Origin: Planctomycetota bacterium
GTDB taxonomy: Bacteria > Planctomycetota > UBA1135 > UBA2386
NCBI GenBank assembly: GCA_046290465.1
Contig: JBKAGP010000001.1
Location: forward strand, 224,001 to 288,000
Reading direction: 5' to 3'
Length of the DNA: 64,000 bases
The translations under genes were made by a program, and so were the position numbers. Each line of letters opens with the position of its first letter. The stretch's first letter is position 1. Positions 5,753-26,078 of this stretch are shown here, in pieces. The notes beneath the pieces are model-generated. The model was not told the DNA's origin and made no database searches. It saw nothing but the letters and a program-made list of their open reading frames with translations.

Positions 5753-6093
5753 TCAGTGGCCTTCCTTGACCATGTTGACGTTCCAGGACGGGATCACGAT
5801 CTCGACCCTGCCGTCCTCGGGCAGCCGCTCGAGCCGCGCCTGGCAGCCGAGCCGCGAGTCGAGCGCGACGTCGCGCGCCTCGTCGAGCTGGTCGAGCTCG
5901 TCGTCGCTGGCCTCGGGGAAGCAGTCGAAGCCGTGCTTGATCTTGACGTGACAGGTCGAGCACGCGCAGACGCCGCCGCATGCGTGGTCGAGTTCGACTC
6001 CCTGCTGCAGGGCCGCTTCGAGGATGGACTGGCCGACCGCGAGCTTCAGCTCCTTGGTCTCGCCGTCCGCGTTGACGATCAGGCGGGCTTCGC

Positions 6094-6097
<4 letters not shown>
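5753..6097 (-). CDS. fdx: ISC-type [2Fe-2S] ferredoxin
   Basis: [14 protein letters not shown] and SRLGCQ; last isc gene. Confidence 0.95.
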
Positions 6098-7928
<1,831 letters not shown>

Positions 7929-7932
<4 letters not shown>

Positions 7933-8429
7933 GACTTGGCTTCGAGGTCGTGCAGGGCCTTCAGGTGGTAGTGCGACTGGTGCACGCGGCGCGCCGCCGC
8001 GGCGAAGTCCCGGTCGGCGACCGCGCGCTGCAGCGCGTCGAAGTCGGCGTCGACCGCGGCCTGCAGCTTGTCGGTCAACGCGGCGCTGCGGTCGCTGTCG
8101 GCGAACGCGACCTCCTCGGCCAGCTCCAGCGCCTCGGCCAGGAACATCGGGTCGAGCTTCTTGTTGGCCTCGAGCACGCCGGGCTGCTCGGCTTCGAGTA
8201 GCGCACGGGCGCGCTTCCAGCGGTCGCGCAGCACGTTCCAGGCGTCGTTGATCTCGGCGGCGCGCTGCAGCACGGCGACGCAGTCGTCGGAGTTCTCGGA
8301 CCGGTTGTGGTCCGGATGGCAGTCGCGCGAGAGCTTGAGGTAGCGGAGCTCGAGATCGTTCGGGTCGAGGTCCAGCGTGCGGGGGACGCCGAACACCGCG
8401 AACGCGTCGGGGGCGGGGACGTGGATCAC
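7929..8429 (-). CDS. hscB: Co-chaperone HscB (J-domain)
   Basis: HPD motif (CHPD), [21 protein letters not shown] start at 8429 assumed. Confidence 0.88.
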
Positions 8430-8440
8430 GGCTGTGGCTG

Positions 8441-8842
8441 CTACGCGCTGAACGACGTGCCGCAACCGCAGGTGCCGGACGCCTGCGGGTTCTTGAAGAC
8501 GAAGCCGCGGTCGAGCAGACCGTCGTTGAAGTCCAGCTCGGTGCCGCCCATGAAGAACTCGCTCTTCTTGTCGACGACGATCTTCACGCCGTGCTGCTCG
8601 AACGTCAGGTCGAACTCGGTCGGGCCGGCTTGGTCGAAGTCGAGCACGTAGGTGAAGCCCGAGCAGCCGCCGCCCTTGGCGCCGATGCGCACCCAGGTCG
8701 ACTCCTCCGGGAACTTCTGCTCCGCGATGACCCGCTGGATCTCCTTGGCGGCGCGTTCCGTCAGCTGCACGCCGCGGCTCGGCTTGGCCTTCGGCTCCTC
8801 GGTGTCGCTGCCGGTCTGGTTGCTCTCGGTGGTGTCGCTCAC
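8441..8842 (-). CDS. iscA: A-type Fe-S carrier IscA/HesB
   Basis: GGGCSGFTY and CGCGTSF; GTG start overlaps the iscU stop. Confidence 0.93.
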
Positions 8843-9249
8843 GACTTGGCCTCCTCCTCCGCGGGGAGCTTGCCGTTCTTGCGCTTCCAGTCGTCGATCG
8901 CGGCCTTGATGGCGTCCTCGGCGAGCACCGAGCAGTGGATCTTGACCGGCGGCAGCGCGAGCTCCTCGACGATCTGGGTGTTCTTGATCTGCGCGGCGGC
9001 GTCGATCGTCGTGCCCTTGAGCCACTCGGTGGCGAGCGACGACGAGGCGATCGCCGAGCCGCAGCCGTAGGTCTTGAACTTGGCGTCGACGATCTTGCCG
9101 CCGTCGTCGACCTTGATCTGCAGCTTCATCACGTCACCACACTCCGGTGCGCCGACGACGCCGGTGCCGACGTCCTCGGCGTCCTTGTCGAGCGAGCCGA
9201 CGTTGCGCGGGTTTTGGTAGTGGTCGAGGACCTTGTCGCTGTAGGCCAT
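8839..9249 (-). CDS. iscU: Fe-S scaffold IscU
   Basis: MAYSDKVLDHYQNPRNVG, PECGDVM, GCGSAIAS, LPPVKIHC (HscA-binding LPPVK). Confidence 0.98.
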   Translation of the reverse strand: MAYSDKVLDHYQNPRNVGSLDKDAEDVGTGVVGAPECGDVMKLQIKVDDGGKIVDAKFKTYGCGSAIASSSLATEWLKGTTIDAAAQIKNTQIVEELALPPVKIHCSVLAEDAIKAAIDDWKRKNGKLPAEEEAKS

Positions 9250-9308
9250 GGTTGGGTTCGCTGTTGGTTGGTGCTTTGGTTGTTTCGGTTGCTGTTGGGT
9301 CGTGGCGA

Positions 9309-10523
9309 TCAGTGCATCGTCCACTTGACCTGGCTGAGATCGACGCCCTCCTGGACCATCTCCCACAGCGGGCTCATCTCGCGCAGGCGCTTGACCTCGG
9401 TGATCACGCGATCGGCGGCGAAGTCGACCTCCTGCTCGGTGGTGAACCGGCCGAGCGAGAAGCGGATCGAGCTGTGCGCGAGTTCGTCGCCGAGGCCGAG
9501 GCTCTTCAGCACGTAGCTCGGCTCGAGGCTCGCCGACGTGCACGCGGAGCCCGACGACACGGCGACCTCCTTGATGCCCATCAGCAGCGACTCGCCCTCG
9601 ACATACGGGAACGAGATGTTGGTCAGGTGCGGCAGGCGGTGCTCCGGGTCGCCGTTGATGACGGCGTCCGGCAGCTCCTTCAGGATCCGGTCCTGCAGCC
9701 GGTCGCGCAGCGCGATCAGCTTGTCGACCTCGGTGGCCATCTCCTCGCGGCAGATCCGCGCGGCCTCGCCCATGCCGACGATGCCGGTCACGTTGAGCGT
9801 GCCCGAGCGCATGCCGCGCTCGTGGCCGCCGCCGTCCATCTGCGACGTCAGGCGAACGCGCGGGTTCTTGCGGCGGACGTAGAGGCAGCCGACGCCCTTG
9901 GGGCCGTACATCTTGTGCGCGCTGAGCGACAGCAGGTCGATGTTCTGGTCCTCGACGTCGAGCGGCAGCTTGCCGGCCGCCTGGGTCGCGTCGGTGTGGA
10001 ACAGCGTGCCCTTCGCCTTGCAGAGCGCGCCGATCTCCTTCAGCGGGTGGGCGGTGCCGACCTCGTTGTTGGCGGCCATCAGCGAGACCAGGATGGTCTT
10101 GTCGGTGATCGCGTTCTCGAGCTGCTTCAGGTCGACGTGGCCCTTGGCGTCGACGTCGAGCCAGGTCACCTCGTAGCCCTGGGTCTCCAGGTACTTCATC
10201 GGGTCGAGCACGGCCTTGTGCTCGGTCACCGCGGTGATCAGGTGGTTGCCCTTCTGCTTGTACATCTGGGCGACGCCCTTGATCGCGAGGTTGTTGGCCT
10301 CGGTCGAGCCGCTCGTCCAGAGCACCTCCTTCGGGTGCGCGCCGATCAGCTGCGCGACCTGGCCGCGCGCTTCCTCGACCGCGGCCTCGGCCGTCCACCC
10401 AAACGAGTGGCTGCGGCTGGCGGCGTTGCCGAAGGTATCGGTGAAGAAGGGCACCATGCGCTCGACGACCCGCGGGTCGCACGGCGTCGTGGCGCTGTAG
10501 TCGAGATAGATCGGCTTGTTCAT
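9309..10523 (-). CDS. iscS: Cysteine desulfurase IscS
   Basis: [20 protein letters not shown] (PLP Lys), SSGSACTS. Confidence 0.98.
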
Positions 10524-10539
10524 CTAACTGGGGTTGCCG

Positions 10540-11226
10540 CTACTGGGTTTGCCGCTGCTGGGGGTTGCCGGTGCGCGCCGCGTCGCCACCGCTGGTCGAC
10601 CCTTCGGTGGCGTCGCCGGTGGTGGCGTCTGCGGACGAGCAGACAGGGGTCATGGCGCACAGTTCGTCGAGGTGGATCTCGGCGAACAGCTTGCGGATGC
10701 GCTCGTGCACGACGCGCATCGGTTGCTTGCTGGGGCAGAACGCGATCAGCGCGCAGTCGGTGCTGCCGGTCGACGCTGTGGACGCGTCGTTGCCGGCCAT
10801 GCTCGGTGCCTGCGGCAGCAGGCCGGAGGCGGCCGAGTCGCCGTGTACTGAGTCCCCATCTACCGAGTCCCCATCTACCGAGTCCTCGTGTACTGAGTCC
10901 TCCTGTGAAGGCTCGTCGTGCGAGACACAGTCGACCAGCACGAACTTGCCCTCGACGACCTCGAGGATCTGGCCGAGCGTGATCTCGCTGGGGGCGTGCG
11001 CCAGGCGATAGCCGCCGCGCAGGCCGCGCACCGAGTCGAGCAGGTCGTGCCGCGCGAACTCCTTGAGCAGGTTGGCGACGACGCTCTTGTTGAGGCCCGC
11101 CTGGCGCGCGATCTCGTGCGCGCTGACCACGGTGTCCTCGGCGCTACCCCCGGGGTAGGCACCCTGGCGGGCGATGGCGCCCAGCAGGAACACGGCGTAG
11201 TCGGCTTTCTTGGAGATCCGCAGCAT
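10540..11226 (-). CDS. Rrf2-family regulator of the isc operon
   Basis: MLRISKKADYA, SVRGLRGGYRLA, three Cys; first gene of the isc operon. Confidence 0.9.
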   Translation of the reverse strand: MLRISKKADYAVFLLGAIARQGAYPGGSAEDTVVSAHEIARQAGLNKSVVANLLKEFARHDLLDSVRGLRGGYRLAHAPSEITLGQILEVVEGKFVLVDCVSHDEPSQEDSVHEDSVDGDSVDGDSVHGDSAASGLLPQAPSMAGNDASTASTGSTDCALIAFCPSKQPMRVVHERIRKLFAEIHLDELCAMTPVCSSADATTGDATEGSTSGGDAARTGNPQQRQTQ

Positions 11227-11344: not shown

Positions 11345-12244
11345 ATGACCGAGACCCAATTGCCTGCAACCCTCCTTGCCAACGGACCCTACGCGCGTGA
11401 CGACGCGCCGTTCGCGCTGCTCGACGTGCTCGGTCCCGATGCGGGAGCGTTCCTGCAGCGGCTGTGTTCGCAGGACGTCGTCGGACTCGACGACGGGCAG
11501 CTCGCCCCGGCGGCGTTCCTCGACGCCAAGGGCAAGCTGGTCTGCACGGTGCTGGTCTGGCGCCGCGGGGACGGCTTCCGCCTGGAGACGCATCGCGAAC
11601 AGGTCGAGCGGCTGTTCGAACTGCTCGAGCGCTACCACTTCACCGAGAAGCTGAGCATCGCCAGGGTCGAGCAGGGCGGCTGCCACGAATACGTCGCCGC
11701 CGCCGCGGAGCCGGTCGCGAGCGCCGTCAACACCGACGACGGCTGCCAGCTGCGCTATGCGCGCCACGGCGTGCTGTTCGTGCGCAGCTACGGCGACACC
11801 ACGCGGGTGTCGGCGACGCCGCTGGCCGAAGACCTGGCCGAGGCGCTGCGCATGGCCGCGGGGCTGGTGCGCGTCGGTGTCGAGACCGAGGCGAGCACGC
11901 TGGCGCTGGAGGCCGGGCTCGACGACCACTGCTCGACGCGCAAGGGCTGCTACACCGGCCAGGAGATCGTCGCCCGCATCCACACCTACGGCCACGTCAA
12001 CCGCAAGCTGTGTCTGCTGCAGCTCGGCGGCGGCGACGCGATCGAGGCGCCCGCGACCCTGCTCGAGCCCGAGGACGAACTGCCGGTCGGGCGCGTCATG
12101 CACGCGGTGCCGGTCGCCGGCCACGACCTGCGCGTCGGACTCGGCTACCTGCCGAAGGACTTCCAGGCGCTCGGCACCAGGCTCCAGCTCGAGGACGGCG
12201 GGGTGGCGACGGTGGTGGGGTTCGGCGACGCCGCCGACGGCTGA
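11345..12244 (+). CDS. ygfZ: Folate-binding Fe-S maturation factor YgfZ
   Basis: Signature KGCYTGQEIVAR; GPDAGAFLQRLCSQDV N-terminus. Confidence 0.92.
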   Translation: MTETQLPATLLANGPYARDDAPFALLDVLGPDAGAFLQRLCSQDVVGLDDGQLAPAAFLDAKGKLVCTVLVWRRGDGFRLETHREQVERLFELLERYHFTEKLSIARVEQGGCHEYVAAAAEPVASAVNTDDGCQLRYARHGVLFVRSYGDTTRVSATPLAEDLAEALRMAAGLVRVGVETEASTLALEAGLDDHCSTRKGCYTGQEIVARIHTYGHVNRKLCLLQLGGGDAIEAPATLLEPEDELPVGRVMHAVPVAGHDLRVGLGYLPKDFQALGTRLQLEDGGVATVVGFGDAADG

Positions 12245-13762: not shown

Positions 13763-14584
13763 TCAGCCGAACCGGCCCTCGATGTAGTCGGAGGTCTCCT
13801 TCTGCTGCGGCGACACGAACATGCGTTCGGTGGCGCTGTGCTCGATCACCTTGCCCAGCAGCATGAAGACGCACTCGTCGCTGGCGCGGCGGGCCTGGGC
13901 CATGTTGTGGGTGACGATCAGGATCGAGTACTTGCCGCGCAGCTCCCAGATCAGCTCCTCGACCGCCGAGGTGGCCTCGGGGTCGAGCGCCGAGCACGGC
14001 TCGTCCATCAGCAGCACGCTCGGTCGGGTCGGCAGCAGCCGCGCGATGCACAGCTTCTGCTGTTCTTCGAGCGACAGGCCGGTGGCCTTGGTCGACAGCT
14101 TGTCCTTGACGCGGTCCCACAGCAGCACCTGCTGCAGCGCCTGCTCGACGACGGCGTCCTCGTCGGCGCGCGAGGTCTTGCCCTCGCGGTGCAGGCGGTG
14201 GCCGAACAGCACGTTGTCGCGGATCGACAGCGGCAGCGGGTTGGGCCGCTGGAACACCATGCCGACGTGGCGGCGGACCTGGATGCGCGACGCGTCCGCG
14301 CCGTAGATGTCCTCGCCGAGCACCTCGATGGTGCCGGTCGTGCGCACGTAGCCGAGCCGTTCGTTGATGCGGTTGCAGCTGCGCAGCAGCGTCGACTTGC
14401 CGCAGCCCGACGGCCCGATCATCGACGTGACGATGCCGGACTTGATGGTCAGGTGGACGTCGTGCAGCGCCTGGAAGTCGCCGTACCAGAGGCTCATGTC
14501 GCGGACCGCGATGGCCGGCATCGCGTTGGCGGCGGCGTCGAGCACGGGGTCGCCCGGCGCGTGGGGTGCGGTGTGATCAGCCAA
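13763..14584 (-). CDS. pstB: Phosphate ABC ATPase PstB, copy A (degenerate signature motif)
   Basis: GPSGCGKST, VGMVFQRPNP, LLMDEPCSALDP, VTHNMAQARR, YIEGRFG; signature reads LSLEEQQK. Confidence 0.93.
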   Translation of the reverse strand: MADHTAPHAPGDPVLDAAANAMPAIAVRDMSLWYGDFQALHDVHLTIKSGIVTSMIGPSGCGKSTLLRSCNRINERLGYVRTTGTIEVLGEDIYGADASRIQVRRHVGMVFQRPNPLPLSIRDNVLFGHRLHREGKTSRADEDAVVEQALQQVLLWDRVKDKLSTKATGLSLEEQQKLCIARLLPTRPSVLLMDEPCSALDPEATSAVEELIWELRGKYSILIVTHNMAQARRASDECVFMLLGKVIEHSATERMFVSPQQKETSDYIEGRFG

Positions 14585-15437
14585 AGCGGCCCTCCAGGTA
14601 GTCGACGGTGCGCTGGTCCTTGGCGCCGCCGGTGAACAGGTCCTCGGTCTCGCCGATCTCGACGCAGCTGCCGTTCAGGAAGAACGCGGTGCGGTCGGCG
14701 AGGCGACGGGCCTGCTGCACGAGGTTGGTGACCAGCACGATGGTCATCTCGTGGCGGAGCTCCTTGAGCACCTCCTCGATCCGCATCGTGGTGACCGGGT
14801 CGACCGCGATCGAGAACTCGTCGAGCAGCAGCACCTCCGGCTGCTGCGACAGCGCGCGTGCGATCGTCAGCCGCTGCTGCTGGCCGCCGGACAGCAGCGA
14901 GCCGAGGTTGGACAGCCGGTCCTTGACCTCGTCCCACAGCGCTGCGCGGGTCAGGCAGCGCTCGACGATGCCGTCGAGCTCGGACCTGCGCGTGATGCCG
15001 CTCAGCCGCGGCGCCAGCGCCACGTTGTCGTAGATCGACAGCGGCAGGCCGACCGGCAGCGGGAACACCACGCCGATGAAGCGGCGCAGCGCGTAGAGGT
15101 TCTGCACGTCGCGCACGTTGCGGCCGGCGAACTCGATGGTGCCGTCGACCTGCATGTCGTCGACGAACTCGTCCATGCGGTTGAGCGCGCGCAGGAACGA
15201 GGTCTTGCCGGCGTTGGCGGGGCCGATGATGCCGAAGATCTCGTTGCGCTGGACCTCGAAGCTGACGTTCTGCAGCGCGACCTTGTCGCCGTAGCGGATG
15301 GTCACATCGGCGAACCGCAGCATCGGTTGGCTCTGCCCAGTATCGCTGTTGCCAGTGTGGCTCTGCATGGTCGGGTCCTGCACGGTCGGGTCCTGCACGG
15401 TCGGGTCCTGCTCGGTGGCGTCGGTCGGGCCTACCAC
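14577..15437 (-). CDS. pstB: Phosphate ABC ATPase PstB, copy B (degenerate Q-, D- and H-loops)
   Basis: GGGAGG RBS before GTG 15437; GPANAGKTS, AALWDEVKDRL, LSGGQQQRL, LLDEFSIAVDP, VTNLVQQARR, YLEGRFG. Confidence 0.9.
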   Translation of the reverse strand: MVGPTDATEQDPTVQDPTVQDPTMQSHTGNSDTGQSQPMLRFADVTIRYGDKVALQNVSFEVQRNEIFGIIGPANAGKTSFLRALNRMDEFVDDMQVDGTIEFAGRNVRDVQNLYALRRFIGVVFPLPVGLPLSIYDNVALAPRLSGITRRSELDGIVERCLTRAALWDEVKDRLSNLGSLLSGGQQQRLTIARALSQQPEVLLLDEFSIAVDPVTTMRIEEVLKELRHEMTIVLVTNLVQQARRLADRTAFFLNGSCVEIGETEDLFTGGAKDQRTVDYLEGRFG

Positions 15438-16306
15438 TTCTTCCTCCCGCGCAGGCGCATGCGCAGCCAGATGGCGATGGCGTTCATCGCGAGCACGACC
15501 AGGATCAGCGTCAGCGCGACCGCGAACGGAACCTCGCGCGGCACGTTGGTCACCTGCGTCGAGACCGTGTAGAGGTGGTACGACAGCGCCATCGTGCGGT
15601 CGAACACCGAGTCCGGGGAGACCAGTCGCAGGAACACCGCGCCGGTGAACATGATCGGCGCGGTCTCGCCGACCGCGCGGCTGACCACCAGGATCAGGCC
15701 GGTCAGGATGCCGCTGACGGAGTTCGGCAGCACGATCGTCGCGATCGTCTGCCAGCGGGTCGCGCCCATGTTCCAGCACGCCTCGCGGAAGCTGTGCGGC
15801 ACCGCCTGCAGCGACTCGCGCGTCGACACGATCACGACCGGCAGCGTCATCACCGCCAGCGTGCAGCCGGCGGCGAGCACCGATTCGCCGAAGTTGAGGA
15901 AGTAGACGAACGCACCGACGCCGAACAGCGCGTGCACGATCGACGGCACGCCGGCGAGGTTGACGATCGCCAGGTTGATCAGGCGGGTCAGCCAGTTGTC
16001 CTTGGCGTACTCGCTGAGGTAGACGGCGGCCGCGACGCCGAGCGGCAGCGCCACCGCCAGCGCGACGCCGGTCAGGCAGACCGTGCCGACCAGCGCCGGC
16101 CAGATGCCGCCCTTGGCGCCGAGTTCGCTCGGCTTGTCGAAGAAGAACGACCACGACAGCGCCGGCCAGCCCTCGACGACCAGCACCGAGAGGATGCCGA
16201 GCACCGGCAGCAGCAGGAACATCACGAAGCCGGCGAACAGCGTGCGCACCAGCTTCTGGGTCGACAGACCCTTCTGCTCCATCTGGGTGGGGACGAAGGT
16301 GCTCAT
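15431..16306 (-). CDS. pstA: Phosphate ABC permease PstA
   Basis: GGIWPALVGT, YLSEYA, LAGVPSIV, RAVGETAP. Confidence 0.95.
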   Translation of the reverse strand: MSTFVPTQMEQKGLSTQKLVRTLFAGFVMFLLLPVLGILSVLVVEGWPALSWSFFFDKPSELGAKGGIWPALVGTVCLTGVALAVALPLGVAAAVYLSEYAKDNWLTRLINLAIVNLAGVPSIVHALFGVGAFVYFLNFGESVLAAGCTLAVMTLPVVIVSTRESLQAVPHSFREACWNMGATRWQTIATIVLPNSVSGILTGLILVVSRAVGETAPIMFTGAVFLRLVSPDSVFDRTMALSYHLYTVSTQVTNVPREVPFAVALTLILVVLAMNAIAIWLRMRLRGRKKW

Positions 16307-17256
16307 CGCCGCCCCCGTCCGCGCACGATCCAGTCGGCGACCAGGTTGATCGAGAACGTGATCAGGAACAGCAGCAGGCCGAGCACGAACAGGACCTGGT
16401 AGTGGTCACTGCCGACGGCGGCTTCGCCGAGCTCGGCGGCGATCGTCGCGGTCAGGGTCGCGGCGCTGTCGAACACGCTCTCGGGCGCCATCAGGCGGTG
16501 GCCGCTCGCCATCAACACGGCGATCGTCTCGCCGAACGCGCGGCCGATGCCGAGCAGCACGGCGGCCGACAGGCCCGGCCGGGCGTGCGGCAGCACGACC
16601 TTCCAGATCACCTGCCAGCGGGTCGCGCCGAGCGCTTCGGCGGCCTCGCGGTAGCTGTCCGGCACGGCCTTCAGTGCGTCCTCGGCGATGGTGGTGATGA
16701 TCGGTGCAGCCATCAGCCCGAGGATCAGGCCGGCGTTGAGCACGTTGAGGCCGACCTGCACGCCGAACGTGTCCTTGATCCACGGCGCGATCACCGCGAG
16801 GCCGATCACGCCCCAGACCACCGACGGGATCGCCGCCAGCAGTTCGATGACGATCTTGAGCCACTCGCGCTGCTTGCCGCGCGCGAACTCGCCGACGTAG
16901 ACGGCCGCGCAGAACGCCAGCGGCACCGCGATCAGCATCGCGACCACGGTGATCCAGGCGGTGCCCGCGATCAGCGGCATCGCGCCGTAGCTCGGCGGCT
17001 TGGCGGTCGGCTCCCATCGGTCGCCGAACAGCAGTTCGCTGATCGACAGGCGATCGAAGGCGAACTCGGCGCCCTGCGAGAAGATGAACAGGAAGATCGC
17101 GCCGATGAACAGGATCGCCGACACGCCGCCGATCGAGACGAGGCTGCGGGCGCCGAAGTCCCGCCACCACGCGCCGTCGCGTCGGTCGAGGCTCTGCAGG
17201 CGCTTGGCCGTCGCTGCCGGGTCGCTACCAGGTGGGGGAGAGCTCGCGTCGGTCAC
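16303..17256 (-). CDS. pstC: Phosphate ABC permease PstC
   Basis: ELLAAIPSVVWG, EAAEALGATRWQ (EAA loop), RAFGETIAV; GTG start assumed. Confidence 0.95.
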   Translation of the reverse strand: MTDASSPPPGSDPAATAKRLQSLDRRDGAWWRDFGARSLVSIGGVSAILFIGAIFLFIFSQGAEFAFDRLSISELLFGDRWEPTAKPPSYGAMPLIAGTAWITVVAMLIAVPLAFCAAVYVGEFARGKQREWLKIVIELLAAIPSVVWGVIGLAVIAPWIKDTFGVQVGLNVLNAGLILGLMAAPIITTIAEDALKAVPDSYREAAEALGATRWQVIWKVVLPHARPGLSAAVLLGIGRAFGETIAVLMASGHRLMAPESVFDSAATLTATIAAELGEAAVGSDHYQVLFVLGLLLFLITFSINLVADWIVRGRGRR

Positions 17257-17258
17257 GG

Positions 17259-18323
17259 TCAGCTCGCTTGTTCGCCGCGGAGGTTCTCCATCAGCTCGCG
17301 GATCATGGGGGTCAGTTGGCGGTAGACGCTCTCCGGGCCGTCGCTCGGGTCGACCTGCCAGGTGATCATCGTGGTGTGGAACGGCAGCCGGCCGAGCCGG
17401 TCGCGGATGCTCGGCTCGAGCCCGACTACCAGGTCGTAGTCGATCAGCTCCTCGCGCATCGTGTCGAACCCGACCGGCCAGGCGCGCCCGAGGTCGATGC
17501 CGACGCTGCCGGCGAACGTGGCGAAGTCGGCGTCCAGCTCTTCGCCCGGTTCGAGGCCGGCGCTGCGGTAGCGGCCGCTGTTGGGGAACGCCTTGGTCGT
17601 GAAGTGCTCGGCGAGCTGGCTGGTGCCGGTGTTGAGCTCGTCGACGAACAGGATGTTGAAGGTCTTCTCGCCCTTGGTCTTGCCGTTGACGACGAACACC
17701 GTCTCTTCGCAGATGTTCTTCGCCTGGTGGATGACGCGCTCGAGCCGGTTGAACGTCGCCATCAGCGCGAACAGCTCCGATGACGGTCGGCTGTTGGCCT
17801 CGCCCTCGCGGGCCAGGTCGGTGAACACCCGGTCGAAGTAGCGGGCGAACTGCGAGGCGTTGGCCAGCGTCGACATCGCCAGCTCGACCTCGCGCGACGT
17901 GAAGCTGCGCAGCGCGTCGGCGAGCAGGCGATGGGCCTGTTCGGCCATCATCTCGATGTCGCGCGCGACCACCGGCGGCGGCGGCGTCGACAGCTGCGCG
18001 GCGGTGCGCGAGATCGTCGTGGCGTAGTCGCCGATGCGCTCGAGGCCGATGCTCAGCCGTAGCACCGCCGACACCGTGCGCAGGTGGCCGGCGCTCGGCA
18101 GGTGGCGGGCGACGAACGCGTGGCACAGGCGATCGAGCTCGCGCGTCTGCCGGTTGGTGGTGTAGTCGCCGAGGATCGTCTGCGCGGCGAGCTCCTTGTC
18201 GACCTGCAGCACGGCGCGCACCGACTGGTCGAGCGCCTTCAGGATCGATTGTCCGACGATGCCGACCAGCTCGTCGATCCAGTTGAGGTCTCGTACCAGG
18301 CGTTCTTCGTAGTGGCTCGTCAC
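17259..18323 (-). CDS. phoU: PhoU fused to a degenerate ArsC/LMW-PTP-like domain
   Basis: Two PhoU repeats (LERIGDYA, LERVIHQAKNICEE) then ILFVDELNTGTSQLAE..SAG..YDLVV; GTG start at 18323. Confidence 0.88.
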   Translation of the reverse strand: MTSHYEERLVRDLNWIDELVGIVGQSILKALDQSVRAVLQVDKELAAQTILGDYTTNRQTRELDRLCHAFVARHLPSAGHLRTVSAVLRLSIGLERIGDYATTISRTAAQLSTPPPPVVARDIEMMAEQAHRLLADALRSFTSREVELAMSTLANASQFARYFDRVFTDLAREGEANSRPSSELFALMATFNRLERVIHQAKNICEETVFVVNGKTKGEKTFNILFVDELNTGTSQLAEHFTTKAFPNSGRYRSAGLEPGEELDADFATFAGSVGIDLGRAWPVGFDTMREELIDYDLVVGLEPSIRDRLGRLPFHTTMITWQVDPSDGPESVYRQLTPMIRELMENLRGEQAS

Positions 18324-18533: not shown

Positions 18534-19397
18534 TCACAGCGGGCGCACCGGCGAGTAGCCGCGGTTCTTCAGGACCGTCTGGCCGTCGTCGCCGAGGATC
18601 CAGTCGAGGTACTCCTTGACGGCGCCCTGCGGCTGGCCGTTGGTGTACATGTAGAGCGGGCGCGAGATCGGGTAGCTGCGGTCGAGGATCGTGTCGTTCG
18701 ACGGCGTCACCGGCTCGCCGCCGCCCTTGTTGACGACCGGCAGCAGCCGCACGTGCTCGGTCGCGTAGGCGAGGCCGCTGTAGCCGATCGCGTTGAGGCT
18801 GCCGCTGCAGAACTCGACCACGTCCTTGCTGCCGTTGAGGTTCAGGCAGCGCGGCTTGAAGCGGCCCTTCTTGCCGAGCACCGCCTCGCGGAAGTACTCG
18901 TAGGTGCCGCTGTTGTTCTGGCGGCTGACCAGCACGACCTCGTTGTCCTGCTCGTTGCCGAAGTCGACGCCGAGCTGGGTCCAGTTCTCGAGTTCGCCGC
19001 CGTCGCCGAACAGCGCGTCGAGCTGCTCCATGGTGATCGACTGCAGCGGGTTGTCCTTGTGCACGTAGACCGCGATGCCGTCGAAGCCGACGATGTGCTC
19101 GACCGGCTCCTGGCCGAGCGCGCGGGCGCGCTTGTCCTCGGACGGCTTCAGCTTGCGCGAGCTGTTGGCGAGGTCGATCGTGCCCGAGATGACGTTGGCG
19201 ATGCCGGTGCCGGAGCCGCCGCCGGAGACCGAGATGACGATGTGGTCGGTGACCTTGTCGTAGGCCTCGGCCCAGGCGCCGGCGACCTCCAGCATGGTGT
19301 CGCTACCCTTGTTGCAGACCTCGGTGTAGCTGCGGCCGGACTTCCAGAAGCAGCCGGTCAGAAGGCAGCTGAGCAGGGCGACGAGGGCGATCTTCAC
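18534..19397 (-). CDS. pstS: Phosphate-binding lipoprotein PstS
   Basis: Lipobox LLTGC; KGSDTM, GGGSGTGI, SRQNNSGTYEYF, YPISRPLYMY. Confidence 0.95.
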   Translation of the reverse strand: MKIALVALLSCLLTGCFWKSGRSYTEVCNKGSDTMLEVAGAWAEAYDKVTDHIVISVSGGGSGTGIANVISGTIDLANSSRKLKPSEDKRARALGQEPVEHIVGFDGIAVYVHKDNPLQSITMEQLDALFGDGGELENWTQLGVDFGNEQDNEVVLVSRQNNSGTYEYFREAVLGKKGRFKPRCLNLNGSKDVVEFCSGSLNAIGYSGLAYATEHVRLLPVVNKGGGEPVTPSNDTILDRSYPISRPLYMYTNGQPQGAVKEYLDWILGDDGQTVLKNRGYSPVRPL

Positions 19398-22001: not shown

Positions 22002-22652
22002 ATGAACGTATCGGATGTGATGTGCAAGGAGCCGCGCGCGGTCCGCATGGTCGACACGCTCGACGCCGCGGCGCAGGTGCTCTGGGATCGGGATTGTGGC
22101 TTCGTGCCGGTGACCGACGGCGCCGACGTGCTGGTCGGAGTGTTGACCGATCGCGACCTCTGCATGGCCAGCTACACCCAGGGCAAGCCGCTCGCCGAGG
22201 TGCCGGTGCTGGTCGCGATGGCGCGCGAACTGACCACGTGCGGTCCCGACGACGAGCTCAAGGACGCGATGAAGGTGATGGCGACGGCGCGCGTGCACCG
22301 GCTGCCGGTGATCGACGAGCGCGGTGTGCTGTGCGGGGTGCTGTCGAGCAACGACCTGGTGCACGCCAGCATGGCGCGGCCGGCGGCGTTGGCGCAGAAG
22401 GCGGTGATGGAGACGCTGGCGGCGATCAAGGAGCCACGCGATGGCGTGCGTTCGTTCGGCGCGACGTCGACGCGCAAGGCGCGCGCCGCGAAGGCGACGG
22501 CCAGCAAGGGGGCGAGCAGCAAGCGGACGACCCGCAAGGCATCGACGGGCAAGGCATCGACTGGCAAGTCGTCGACCGGCAGGGCGTCGAGCAAGGCGCG
22601 CACCAGCAAGGCGCGGCCGGCGAAGGCCCGCTCCAGCAAGGGCAAGGCGTAG
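22002..22652 (+). CDS. CBS-pair protein with Lys/Ala/Ser-rich basic tail
   Basis: DCGFVPV, LVGVLTDRDL, VHRLPVID..GVLSSNDL; KASTG-repeat tail. Confidence 0.9.
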   Translation: MNVSDVMCKEPRAVRMVDTLDAAAQVLWDRDCGFVPVTDGADVLVGVLTDRDLCMASYTQGKPLAEVPVLVAMARELTTCGPDDELKDAMKVMATARVHRLPVIDERGVLCGVLSSNDLVHASMARPAALAQKAVMETLAAIKEPRDGVRSFGATSTRKARAAKATASKGASSKRTTRKASTGKASTGKSSTGRASSKARTSKARPAKARSSKGKA

Positions 22653-22671
22653 GCTCCGAGGCGTCGCCCGC

Positions 22672-23796
22672 ATGGCCGTGTCGTTCACCGTGAGCTCCGA
22701 GACGGCGTCGAACGGACGCCACCGGGTGGCGATCGCGGGTGCGGTGACGCTGGTCGAAGGACGCCGGCTGTGGCGCGAGGTGCCCGACGCGTTCGGGCCG
22801 GCGCAGCTCGCCGACCTCGACCTGTCGGCGGTCGTGCGGCTCGACGGCGGCTCGGCCGCGCTGCTGGCGGCGATGGTCACCCAGCTGCGCGCCGAGGGCC
22901 GCGAGGTCGAGGTCGTCGGCGCCAGCGGTGAGACCTCGCAAATGCTGAAGCTCTACGACTGTACCCGCAGCGTGCCGTGCGAGCGCGAGACGCCCAAGCA
23001 CCCGGGCGTGATCACCGAGACCGGCAACGTCGTGGTGGCGGTGCTCGAGGGGGCCCGCGCGATCCTCGAGTTCGTCGGCGACTTCGTGGTCGGCATCGTG
23101 AACGCGCTGCGCCGACCGGCGAGCGTGCACTTCGGGCAGTTCTGGAACCTGATCGAACGCGCCGGCGCCGACGGCGTGCCGATCGTGCTGCTGATCAACT
23201 TCCTGGTCGGCGGCATCCTCGGCCTGCAGGGCGCGATCCAGCTGCACCGGTTCGGCGCCGACCAGTTCCTGGCCGACATGGTGGGCCTCGCGATGGTGCG
23301 CGAACTCGGGCCGCTGATGACCGCGATCCTGGTGACCGGCCGCAGCGGTGCCGCCTACGCCGCCGAGCTCGGCACGATGAAGGTCAACGAGGAGATCGAC
23401 GCGCTGCGCACGCTCGGCCAGGATCCGCAGCGGTTCCTGGTGTTCCCGCGCGTCTTGACGCTGGTGCTGGTGGTGCCGCTGCTGACGCTGCTCGGCAACC
23501 TGGTCGGCGCGGTCGGTGGCTGGGCGATCGCGGTCGGCTACCTCGACCAGCCGACGGTCGTGTACCTGCAGGCGCTGCAGGCGGCGGTCGACCTCGGCGA
23601 CCTCGGCACCGGCCTGCTCAAGTCGCTCGGCTTCGCCGGCGCGATCGGCCTGGTCGCCTGCCAGCGTGGCCTCGCGACCACCGGCGGCGCCGACGGGGTC
23701 GGCCGCGCGACCACCTCGGCGGTGGTGACGTCGCTGTTCCTGCTGGTCGTGCTCGACGCGCTGTTCACGTGGGCCTTCACCCTGTTGGATTGGTGA
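22672..23796 (+). CDS. mlaE: MlaE-family ABC permease with N-terminal STAS domain
   Basis: LDLSAVVRLDGGS (STAS), RELGPLMTAIL..GRSGAAYAAELGTMKVNEEIDAL. Confidence 0.9.
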   Translation: MAVSFTVSSETASNGRHRVAIAGAVTLVEGRRLWREVPDAFGPAQLADLDLSAVVRLDGGSAALLAAMVTQLRAEGREVEVVGASGETSQMLKLYDCTRSVPCERETPKHPGVITETGNVVVAVLEGARAILEFVGDFVVGIVNALRRPASVHFGQFWNLIERAGADGVPIVLLINFLVGGILGLQGAIQLHRFGADQFLADMVGLAMVRELGPLMTAILVTGRSGAAYAAELGTMKVNEEIDALRTLGQDPQRFLVFPRVLTLVLVVPLLTLLGNLVGAVGGWAIAVGYLDQPTVVYLQALQAAVDLGDLGTGLLKSLGFAGAIGLVACQRGLATTGGADGVGRATTSAVVTSLFLLVVLDALFTWAFTLLDW

Positions 23797-23797
23797 C

Positions 23798-24541
23798 ATG
23801 CGGAAGGTGCTCGAGGTGCGCGACCTGGCGATCGGACACGGCGGCGAGGTGCTGCTGGACGAGCTCGCGTTCGACGTGCTGCGCGGCCAGGTGTTCGCGA
23901 TCCTCGGCGCCTCGGGCTGCGGCAAGTCGACGCTGCTGCGCACGTTGATCGGCCTGCAGGCGCCGCTCGGTGGGCGCGTGCACTTCACCGGGGTCGGCAC
24001 GCCGCAGGACGCGATGATGCCGCCGCGGTTCGGGGTCGTGTTCCAGTCGGCGGCGCTGTTCGGCTCGTCGACGCTGCTGCAGAACGTGCTGCTGCCGCTG
24101 CAGAAGTGGACCGGCCTCAGCAAGGACGCCGCCCACGTGGTCGCGATGGGGCGGCTGCGCCTGGTCGGCCTCGAACGCTACGCCAACCACCTGCCGTCCG
24201 AGGTCTCCGGCGGCATGCGCAAGCGCGCCGGCATCGCGCGCGCGCTGGCGCTCGATCCGCCGCTGCTGTTCCTCGACGAACCGTCGGCCGGCCTCGATCC
24301 GATCACCGCCGCCGAACTCGACGAACTGATCGTGACGCTGGCCCGCGGCCTGCAGGTTACGATCGTGCTGGTGACGCACGAACTGCCCTCCATCCGTCGC
24401 GTCGCCGACCAGTGCATCATGCTGGACCGCGAAGCGGGCGGCATCATCGCGCGGGGCAGTCCGCGCGCCTTGTCCGAGCGGCCCAACGACGCGCGCGTGC
24501 GCGCGTTCTTCGGTCGCCAACCGCTGCAGGAGCATCTGTGA
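23798..24541 (+). CDS. mlaF: MlaF-family ABC ATPase
   Basis: GASGCGKST, VSGGMRKRAGIARA, FLDEPSAGLDP. Confidence 0.9.
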   Translation: MRKVLEVRDLAIGHGGEVLLDELAFDVLRGQVFAILGASGCGKSTLLRTLIGLQAPLGGRVHFTGVGTPQDAMMPPRFGVVFQSAALFGSSTLLQNVLLPLQKWTGLSKDAAHVVAMGRLRLVGLERYANHLPSEVSGGMRKRAGIARALALDPPLLFLDEPSAGLDPITAAELDELIVTLARGLQVTIVLVTHELPSIRRVADQCIMLDREAGGIIARGSPRALSERPNDARVRAFFGRQPLQEHL

Positions 24542-25548
24542 CCGCGCCAGCCTCTCGTTGGAAACTCGGCCTGTTCGTCGTCGCCGGTTCGGCGATCGGC
24601 CTGCTCGGCGTCGCCTTCCTCGGCGCGCGCGAGCTGCAGCGCTCGACGCACACCGCCTACGCCTACTTCGACGAGGCCCTGACCGGGCTCGAGGAGGGCT
24701 CGTCGGTCAAGTTCCGCGGCGTCACCGTCGGCCGCGTCGAGCGCATCAAGTTCGCGTCCGACAAGAAGCACCTCGAGGTGCAGGCGTCGCTCTACGACGA
24801 CTACCTGAGCGACCTCGGCCTCGATGCGTCGAAGCTCGACGCCGACAACCCGCTGACGCGCAACCTGCGGGCGCAGGTGGTGATGTCGTGGGTGACCAGC
24901 ACCGCGTTCATCCAGGTCGACTACTTTCCCGATCCGCCGCGCGGCCCCCAGCTGCTGCCGTTCGACGTGCCGTCGGATGGGGTCACGCTGCGCACCGTGC
25001 CGAGCACCGCCAAGAGCCTCGAGTCGTCGACGCGCGAGGTGCTGCGCGAACTGCCGCGGGTGGCGTCGACGGTGCGCGAGCTGGTCGACCTGCTGCGCAC
25101 CGAGCTGAGTGCGGCCCGGCTGCCGGAGGTGTCGCGCAAGCTGCAGTCGCTGCTGAGCAAGGTCGAGAAGCAGGTCGACGCGCTCGATGCCGAGGGCGCG
25201 GTGGCGGCGGCGACCGGGGCGCTGCAGGAGGTCGGTGCGACCGCGGCGGCGTTCCGCGAGGAGCGCGAGGGCCTGCGGGCGACGATGGCGGCGTGGACGG
25301 AACTGGGCCGTTCGCTGCAGCGGGAGGTCGAGGCGATGGCGCTCGACGAGACCAGCGCCGGCGTGCGCGGGGCCGCGGTGCACCTCGGTGGCCTGGCCGA
25401 ACTGCGCGCCGACGTGCGCGCCGAACTGCACAACCTGCGCCGCGCGCTGGCCGCCGTCGAGCGGCTGGCGGCGATGCTCGAACGCGACCCCGGCTCGCTG
25501 CTGCGCGGCCGCGGCGCGTCCAACTCGCCGTGGAAGGAGGACAAGTGA
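24538..25548 (+). CDS. MCE/MlaD-family protein
   Basis: N-terminal TM, GLEEGSSVKFRGVTVGRV, helical tail ending LERDPGSLLRG. Confidence 0.88.
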   Translation: MTAPASRWKLGLFVVAGSAIGLLGVAFLGARELQRSTHTAYAYFDEALTGLEEGSSVKFRGVTVGRVERIKFASDKKHLEVQASLYDDYLSDLGLDASKLDADNPLTRNLRAQVVMSWVTSTAFIQVDYFPDPPRGPQLLPFDVPSDGVTLRTVPSTAKSLESSTREVLRELPRVASTVRELVDLLRTELSAARLPEVSRKLQSLLSKVEKQVDALDAEGAVAAATGALQEVGATAAAFREEREGLRATMAAWTELGRSLQREVEAMALDETSAGVRGAAVHLGGLAELRADVRAELHNLRRALAAVERLAAMLERDPGSLLRGRGASNSPWKEDK

Positions 25549-26078
25549 TGCCGCGATCGAGCCCGTTCCTGGTGGTGCTGCTGGGCGGTGCCGCGACGCT
25601 GTCGAGCTGCCTGTCGTCGGGGCCCCCGGCGCCGCCGGTGCGCTGGTTCGACCCGACCGCCGCGTTCGGCACCGCCGAGCGCGGCTCGCCGGTCGAGCCG
25701 GTGCAGGTCCGCGGCCAGTCGCACCTGGTCCAGGACATCGCCGTGCGGGTGTCGCCGTTCGAGATCGTCTACGACGGCGACCACCGCTGGCTGATGCCGC
25801 CCGAGGAGATCCTGCGGCGCGCATTCGTGCACGACGGCGTGCCGATCACCGGCGCCGGCCGGCTGGTCGAACTGACCGCCTTCGAACTGCAGCGAAGTTC
25901 CGGCGCCGCCGCCGCCCGCGTCGCCTGCCTCGTGCACCCGAGCCGCGAAGGTGCGATCGCGGCGCAGCCGCTCGAGGCCGTCGTCGCCGCCCCCGACGAC
26001 TCGCTGCCGTCGCTGACCCTGGCCATGGGCCAGGCCGTGCAGCAGCTCGTCACCCAGATCCACGAGCTGCCCCAGTAG
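25548..26078 (+). CDS. PqiC-like auxiliary lipoprotein
   Basis: Lipobox LSSC; HRWLMPPEE; last gene of the MCE operon. Confidence 0.7.
   Translation: MPRSSPFLVVLLGGAATLSSCLSSGPPAPPVRWFDPTAAFGTAERGSPVEPVQVRGQSHLVQDIAVRVSPFEIVYDGDHRWLMPPEEILRRAFVHDGVPITGAGRLVELTAFELQRSSGAAAARVACLVHPSREGAIAAQPLEAVVAAPDDSLPSLTLAMGQAVQQLVTQIHELPQ

Follow-up and report, generated by a model that had tools for sequence, protein, structure and literature searches.

The two adjacent pstB genes analysed in this study have lost their ATPase motifs reciprocally: the downstream copy (copy A) is degenerate in its signature, and the upstream copy (copy B) is altered in the motifs that face a partner's signature. On sequence grounds, the two products likely form an obligate A-B heterodimer, in which one site would hydrolyse ATP and the other, though non-hydrolysing, would probably still bind nucleotide.

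The pair lies at the end of an intact pstS–phoU–pstC–pstA–pstB–pstB operon on the minus strand of the window, which is the whole 64,000-nucleotide stretch of DNA analysed here, and the gene ends overlap or nearly touch, with stop/start overlaps throughout. The pstS gene (18534..19397, −) encodes a phosphate-binding lipoprotein (TIGR02136, 231.4 bits, above the cut-off of 206.6), whose presumed start at GTG 19397 was chosen from a lipoprotein-like signal and whose nearest solved structures are the phosphate-binding proteins 4pqj and 4omb. It is followed by phoU (17259..18323, −), fused to a C-terminal LMWPc/ArsC-like domain and scoring over the cut-off for Pfam PhoU and just under it for TIGR02135, and then by the permease genes pstC (16303..17256, −; TIGR02138, 282.7 bits, cut-off 196.45) and pstA (15431..16306, −; TIGR00974, 266.6 bits, cut-off 193.45). 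The permeases are those of a type I importer, encoded apart from the genes of the nucleotide-binding domains (NBDs) and accompanied by a binding protein. Copy B (14577..15437, −; presumed start GTG 15437, overlapping the pstA stop) and copy A (13763..14584, −; start codon uncertain, TTG 14584, overlapping the copy B stop by 8 nt) score 285.3 and 318.8 bits with TIGR00972, so that neither reaches the PstB equivalog cut-off of 343.2 bits, although this is still the best family for both. The closest solved structure to copy A is E. coli PstB 9k3x.

Two arginines select phosphate in E. coli PstA and PstC, as described in PMC12976172. Arg210 of the window's PstA aligns with Arg220 of the E. coli protein, which binds phosphate, and Arg239 of PstC aligns with Arg237 of E. 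coli PstC; in the related loci described below, these residues are kept in 114 of 119 PstA rows and 81 of 81 PstC rows (rows not deduplicated). The closest relatives with a named host are from Planctomycetota, to which the host of the window therefore probably belongs. The host genome is a single contig, 94% complete by markers, in which the pair provides the sole PstB-like matches; the next best match has 155 bits, and no third, canonical PstB scores above it. No family match for Pit (PF01384) or Na/Pi (PF02690) was found in this 94% complete genome, which is not proof of absence. One PhoU and, elsewhere in the genome, two more matches to the binding-protein family were found, and PhoB had no clear match over the cut-off (best, 248.8 of 296.2 bits). 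Based on the likeness of PstS to phosphate-binding proteins, the retained arginines and the lack of any other PstB, Pit or Na/Pi match, this operon is most likely the working phosphate importer of the genome.

Elsewhere in the window, the minus strand at 5753-11226 carries what we take to be an iron-sulfur cluster operon encoding an Rrf2/IscR-like regulator, IscS, IscU, IscA, HscB, HscA and ferredoxin, with a presumably YgfZ-like gene at 11345-12244 upstream of it, and the plus strand at 22441-26078 carries a presumed MlaE/MlaF/MlaD-like ABC cluster. The ATPase of the Mla-like cluster is among the genes of this genome that match TIGR00972 weakly. The N-terminal extension of copy B contains a short tandem repeat (15370-15415), consisting of three near copies of 15 bases that encode QDPTV-like units; low-complexity inserts of this kind also occur in the Rrf2-like gene (10540-11226).

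Copies A and B are 40% identical, and their motif columns are homologous. Copy A retains the A-loop, Walker A (GPSGCGKST, 14390-14416, −), Q-loop (VFQ, 14249-14257, −), Walker B, D-loop (DEPCSALD, 13982-14005, −) and H-loop (VTHN, 13904-13915, −), and its signature alone is degenerate, reading LSLEE (14063-14077, −) in place of LSGGQ. Copy B retains an intact LSGGQ (within LSGGQQQR, 14880-14894, −), together with an altered Walker A body (GPANAGKTS, 15198-15224, −), a Q-loop in which Gln is replaced by Pro (VFP, 15060-15068, −), an altered D-loop region (DEFSIAVD, 14799-14822, −) and Asn in place of the H-loop His (14724-14726, −); the Lys-Thr of Walker A, the Tyr of the A-loop and the two acidic residues of Walker B (DE) are still present. 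The full motif set is thus present in neither copy, and each motif named in the first-pass annotation lies where it had been placed there. The positions of Gln160 and Glu179 of E. coli PstB are kept in both copies.

In the known head-to-tail dimer of NBDs, from which we assigned the two composite sites, site 1 would combine Walker A and B, the Q-loop and the H-loop of A with the LSGGQ of B, all canonical, and site 2 would combine the same four motifs of B with the LSLEE of A, thereby collecting the changes. The serine of Walker A touches the γ-phosphate. With the roles given to the other site residues in the reviews PMC7756269 and PMC3971661, site 2 would have lost or altered its γ-phosphate contacts (Walker A Ser, Q-loop Gln, H-loop His and the signature Gly-Gly) and kept the residues holding adenine, the β-phosphate and Mg (A-loop Tyr, Lys-Thr and Walker B Asp). 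Since an AA dimer would have two spoiled signatures and a BB dimer two spoiled catalytic halves, only AB would have a full site. The earlier claim that all changes fall in one composite site agrees with this division into a canonical and a degenerate site, but it does not extend to the D-loop, which sits mid-interface and serves both ATP sites (PMC7756269).

In the proposed motor, A and B would be the unlike ATPase subunits under one PstC-PstA channel. After the docking of PstS, ATP would close site 1, with the dimer hinging at site 2; phosphate would then pass to the Arg pair, and a single hydrolysis would reset the pump. That one-site motors can work is indicated by the example of HisP, which PMC3971661 cites as working with a single active site, and by the matching layout of E. 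coli LivF/LivG. The coupling helices of the two permeases differ at one position (Trp in EACWNMG of PstA, Glu in EAAEALG of PstC), and in counts that were not deduplicated, the Trp was found in 104 of 119 PstA rows of asymmetric loci vs. at most 2 of 64 in other loci, and the Glu in 62 of 81 PstC rows vs. 0 of 55. Such unlike helices would set which ATPase docks where; subunit-specific docking fits this difference, which is confounded by descent. When the complex formed by PstA, PstC, A and B was predicted from alignments, it scored 0.25 against a mark of 0.32, with the controls not folded and no contacts given, and this score carries no weight for or against the heterodimer.

The pairing was then followed in relatives. 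The set of loci comprised the best 80 of 602 from a search of GTDB contigs with B, the best 80 of 577 from a search of metagenomes with A, 30 each from searches with A and with B in one 300-genome sample of the phylum, and 20 hand-picked regions. These contained 160 adjacent pstB pairs, of which 136 remained after dropping duplicates and the window's own pair. The upstream copy has the His-to-Asn change in 126 of the 136, and wherever the downstream signature of such a pair is readable, it is degenerate (124 of 124; cut off in the other two). Of the remaining ten pairs, nine carry canonical motifs in both genes and the tenth is intermediate. Another Asn/LSPEQ pair, with its genes 640 bases apart (L222), was left out of the count.

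Of the 47 loci approached through B, 44 show a degenerate partner; the partner is cut in two, and the last locus stops at a contig edge. From the A side, which covers near relatives of A and the one phylum sample, 79 of the best 80 metagenome loci (of 577) have a degenerate signature, and the upstream pstB called in 70 of these 79 has Asn in every case (70 of 70). The first-pass expectation that an LSLEE/LSLEQ-type signature in one copy goes with the His-to-Asn change in its partner is therefore borne out from both directions. Among the nine A-side loci without a called upstream gene, five have fewer than 60 bases upstream, two contain a B-like C-terminal piece and one a PstB piece; on the metagenome contig L177 (1-1401), an A-type gene is preceded by no more of B than its final 21 codons, which come after unrelated DNA, so that this lone A copy may reflect either a deletion or a misassembly.

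In B, the H-loop position is Asn in all 126 pairs lacking His, and the Q-loop position, which can be read in 114 copies, holds Pro in 96 of them and Ala in 18; Walker A Lys (113 of 113 readable), the Walker B DE with its catalytic Glu (123 of 123 readable), an A-loop Tyr or Phe (109 of 113) and an xxGGQ signature (121 of 121) are retained. In A, the fourth signature position is Glu in 122 and Asp in two of 124 readable copies, and the third is mostly Leu, with Ala, Pro and Gly also occurring; Walker A and the Gln are kept in 126 of 126 and the His in 122 of 122 readable copies. The altered D-loop was rejected as a core feature, since the ordinary DEPCSGLD or DEPTSALD occurs in 19 of the 123 B copies that can be read. 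Therefore, the core pattern as read from these alignments is the His-to-Asn change and Gln loss in B together with an acid in the A signature, to which the altered D-loop is secondary.

Of the 300 genomes in the phylum sample, at least 38 carry the pair, which occurs in two grades: that of the window (TNL, Pro and DEFSI) in 22 of 38 genomes, and a milder one (TNN, Ala and an ordinary D-loop) in 16. The named hosts (L001-L019) belong to seven phyla, namely Planctomycetota, Pseudomonadota, Acidobacteriota, Myxococcota, Ca. Poribacteria, Ca. Binatota and Verrucomicrobiota, and include two unplaced deltaproteobacteria; among them is the cultured Limisphaera sp. 4302-co (L019). Of five other genomes checked, two have the pair as their only PstB matches and three also have a canonical pstB, and several further sampled genomes of the phylum carry a canonical pstB in addition to the pair. 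Three odd loci were also observed. In the intermediate pair from Syntrophobacteraceae (L045:6001-7518), the upstream copy has an altered Walker A and Ala in the Q-loop and keeps its His in PHS, and the downstream signature is LSLGQ. In Ca. Poribacteria, a third PstB-like gene (L015:8522-9274), located behind the pair and a permease-like gene, is degenerate in signature, Q-loop and H-loop alike and falls outside A and B in the tree described below. The second pstB of Nostoc (L044:7461-8225) has Pro in the Q-loop and an altered Walker A and keeps His and LSGGQ; as it is nearest to cyanobacterial canonical PstB, it represents a separate change.

Both copies are under purifying selection, with a median dN/dS of 0.101 (B) and 0.095 (A) in 61 comparisons between close sequences, which are not independent of one another. 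The codons of the replaced residues vary synonymously, both codons being used, and this variation, together with recurrence in 126 related pairs, means that the motif changes are not due to chance or decay; a pseudogene or sequencing error was rejected on the basis of the dN/dS of about 0.10 and the same recurrence. An unrooted quick-mode tree was built with the motif columns removed; its 160 rows were the two copies of the window, 61 pairs picked at below 80% identity from 109 of full length, 32 of 91 canonical copies and four odd ones. One branch (support 97) sets apart all 62 A types, and another (support 85) sets apart all 62 B types together with the upstream copy of L045. The pairs were gathered for their similarity to A or B and apparently share a single origin; counts such as 124 of 124 thus represent long retention under selection and not repeated origin. 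The A and B distances correlate at 0.918 (61 pairs, with identities down to 42-44%), a value reached in none of 2000 permutations; this speaks for long co-inheritance of the two copies and was rejected as proof of A-B contact, since any co-inherited operon genes would show the same. Close kin have canonical single or tandem pstB (e.g., G119 and G271), and the spread over phyla is patchy, which suggests that the operon has been transferred or lost as a unit.

Whether site 2 still hydrolyses ATP is a point on which the first-pass description of one canonical and one dead site needs revision: the site is degenerate, but "dead" is too strong a word. The catalytic Glu and Walker A Lys of B are kept in every readable copy, and PMC7756269 reports that transport by ABCC1 with the His-to-Asn change in NBS2 was wild-type-like and that degenerate sites may hydrolyse slowly. 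Site 2 may thus turn over slowly, given this Glu and the tolerance of the substitution in ABCC1. A heterodimer in which both sites hydrolyse, site 2 being merely re-tuned to be slower or differently gated, would also account for an Asn that is fixed and not free to vary. However, four γ-phosphate contacts are changed together, including Pro or Ala in the Q-loop and an acid in the signature in all readable pairs, and the kept Glu could be structural; we therefore regard hydrolysis at both sites as unlikely.

Two further alternatives were considered. In the tandem pair of E. faecalis, PstB2 can replace PstB1 when overexpressed (PMC12096839), and by analogy, one copy of the window pair could work as a homodimer, or with a canonical PstB from outside, with the other being accessory or regulatory. 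The canonical pstB genes found elsewhere in some genomes could pair with A or B there, and L177 has A without a whole B. Nevertheless, both E. faecalis copies are canonical in that report, neither AA nor BB would hold a complete site, and this genome offers no other PstB match, which makes such an arrangement quite improbable. Nor is much weight to be given to a decaying duplicate or to an operon that only senses phosphate, both very improbable here: both copies are below the TIGR00972 cut-off, PhoU carries an extra pseudo-phosphatase domain, and signalling by E. coli Pst without transport is possible according to PMC5775613, but the dN/dS is low in both copies, site 1 and PstS are intact, the arginines of the channel are kept, and no other phosphate importer family was found in the genome. 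The A-B heterodimer with one hydrolysing site accordingly remains the preferred reading.

Beyond holding nucleotide, site 2 of this heterodimer could have been re-purposed as a sensor that ties uptake, or the signal reaching the PhoU fusion, to the ATP/ADP or phosphate state of the cell, an idea we put forward tentatively and consider rather doubtful. The kept adenine, β-phosphate and Mg contacts would serve such a role, and the fixed signature Glu of A would occupy the place of the γ-phosphate, where the Lys of Walker A in B and the invariant Asn of that copy would hold it, so that site 2 would prefer ADP or would latch shut without ATP. This regulatory idea draws on E. coli, in which the conformation of PstB signals phosphate status (PMC5775613). 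The LMWPc/ArsC-like domain of the window's PhoU (17259-17669, −) is without the catalytic Cys and Arg and matches Pfam LMWPc at an E of 0.0016, below the cut-off. An LMWPc-like tail was found in 35 of 58 PhoU genes of loci with asymmetric copies vs. 0 of 52 in other loci, the 23 unfused genes being counted whether or not a contig end cuts them or a second copy exists. Of 11 tails tested, nine match Pfam LMWPc at E < 0.1, four of them over the cut-off, and judged by eye, none of the 35 has Cys at the nucleophile position of the catalytic motif. The tail is a possible phosphate- or arsenate-binding pseudo-enzyme, and since the pairs in L011-L013 and L016 have no PhoU fusion beside the operon, the fusion is not required.

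Several known systems can be compared with the pair. The system resembles E. coli PstSCAB in having PstS, PstC, PstA, PhoU and PstB-family ATPases with the phosphate arginines kept. E. coli Pst, in contrast, has two identical PstB subunits (PMC12976172; PDB 9k3x, 9k3y and 9k3s), whereas here there are two different ATPases with one complete composite site and a PhoU fused to a pseudo-phosphatase domain. The tandem pstB genes of Bacillota are likewise adjacent in one pst operon, but unlike those of the window, both copies are canonical, as in E. faecalis, where one suffices when overexpressed (PMC12096839), and as in all nine His/GG pairs of our set, including that of B. subtilis (L030). According to PMC12096839, no earlier study had compared tandem pstB copies; PstBA/PstBB of B. 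subtilis were modelled as a heterodimer in PMC11466899.

The first-pass annotation had called such a layout unusual for a binding-protein-dependent importer, which is too strong in view of LivF/LivG, RbsA and NupO. In E. coli, LivG (L111:4725-6207 carries LivF and LivG) has the signature LAYGD and keeps Gln and His, and LivF has the signature MSGGE, with the H-loop His replaced by Gln and a Q-loop that contains Glu; this importer, with a binding protein and two ATPase genes, has the same reciprocal layout as the window pair, as read here from sequence, in a different family with 26-27% identity to copy A. A published statement of this LivF/LivG motif loss was not found in our literature search, and PMC6703430 mentions LivF in passing with nothing on its motifs. 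B. subtilis RbsA and NupO are also binding-protein importers with one degenerate ATP site each (PMC11466899), but their NBDs are fused in one chain, and their second Walker A is without the Lys that B keeps. One-site motors are common in exporters, as PMC7756269 and PMC3971661 describe for TM287/288, TmrAB, TAP and ABCC proteins. As in the heterodimeric exporters, the signature is changed in one NBD and the cis motifs in the other, all in one site; unlike the pair, TAP and TmrAB have an exporter fold with fused TMD-NBD, and Glu-to-Asp in Walker B, the usual second mark of degenerate sites (PMC7756269), is absent in the pair.

Among the families compared, the loss of the Q-loop Gln with a fixed signature acid is particular to asymmetric PstB pairs. 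No description of an asymmetric one-site motor in Pst was found in the full-text literature searched, which was mostly open-access and without supplements. The novelty is the occurrence, fixed form and spread of the one-site layout in the Pst family; the surprise is limited, as the principle is already known from exporters and the Rbs/Nup importers.

Pst is treated as a pump driven by a homodimer, the conformation of which also signals phosphate status (PMC5775613, PMC12976172). As both copies of the pair miss the PstB cut-off, genomes of this kind can look as though they had no proper PstB in annotation. Transport and signalling may be separately mutable here, unlike in the E. coli homodimer, because they could sit on different subunits. 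A widespread natural Pst with what appears to be one complete ATP site would provide a test of how many ATP are used per substrate in type I importers, and the same natural variant would test what degenerate ATP sites do.
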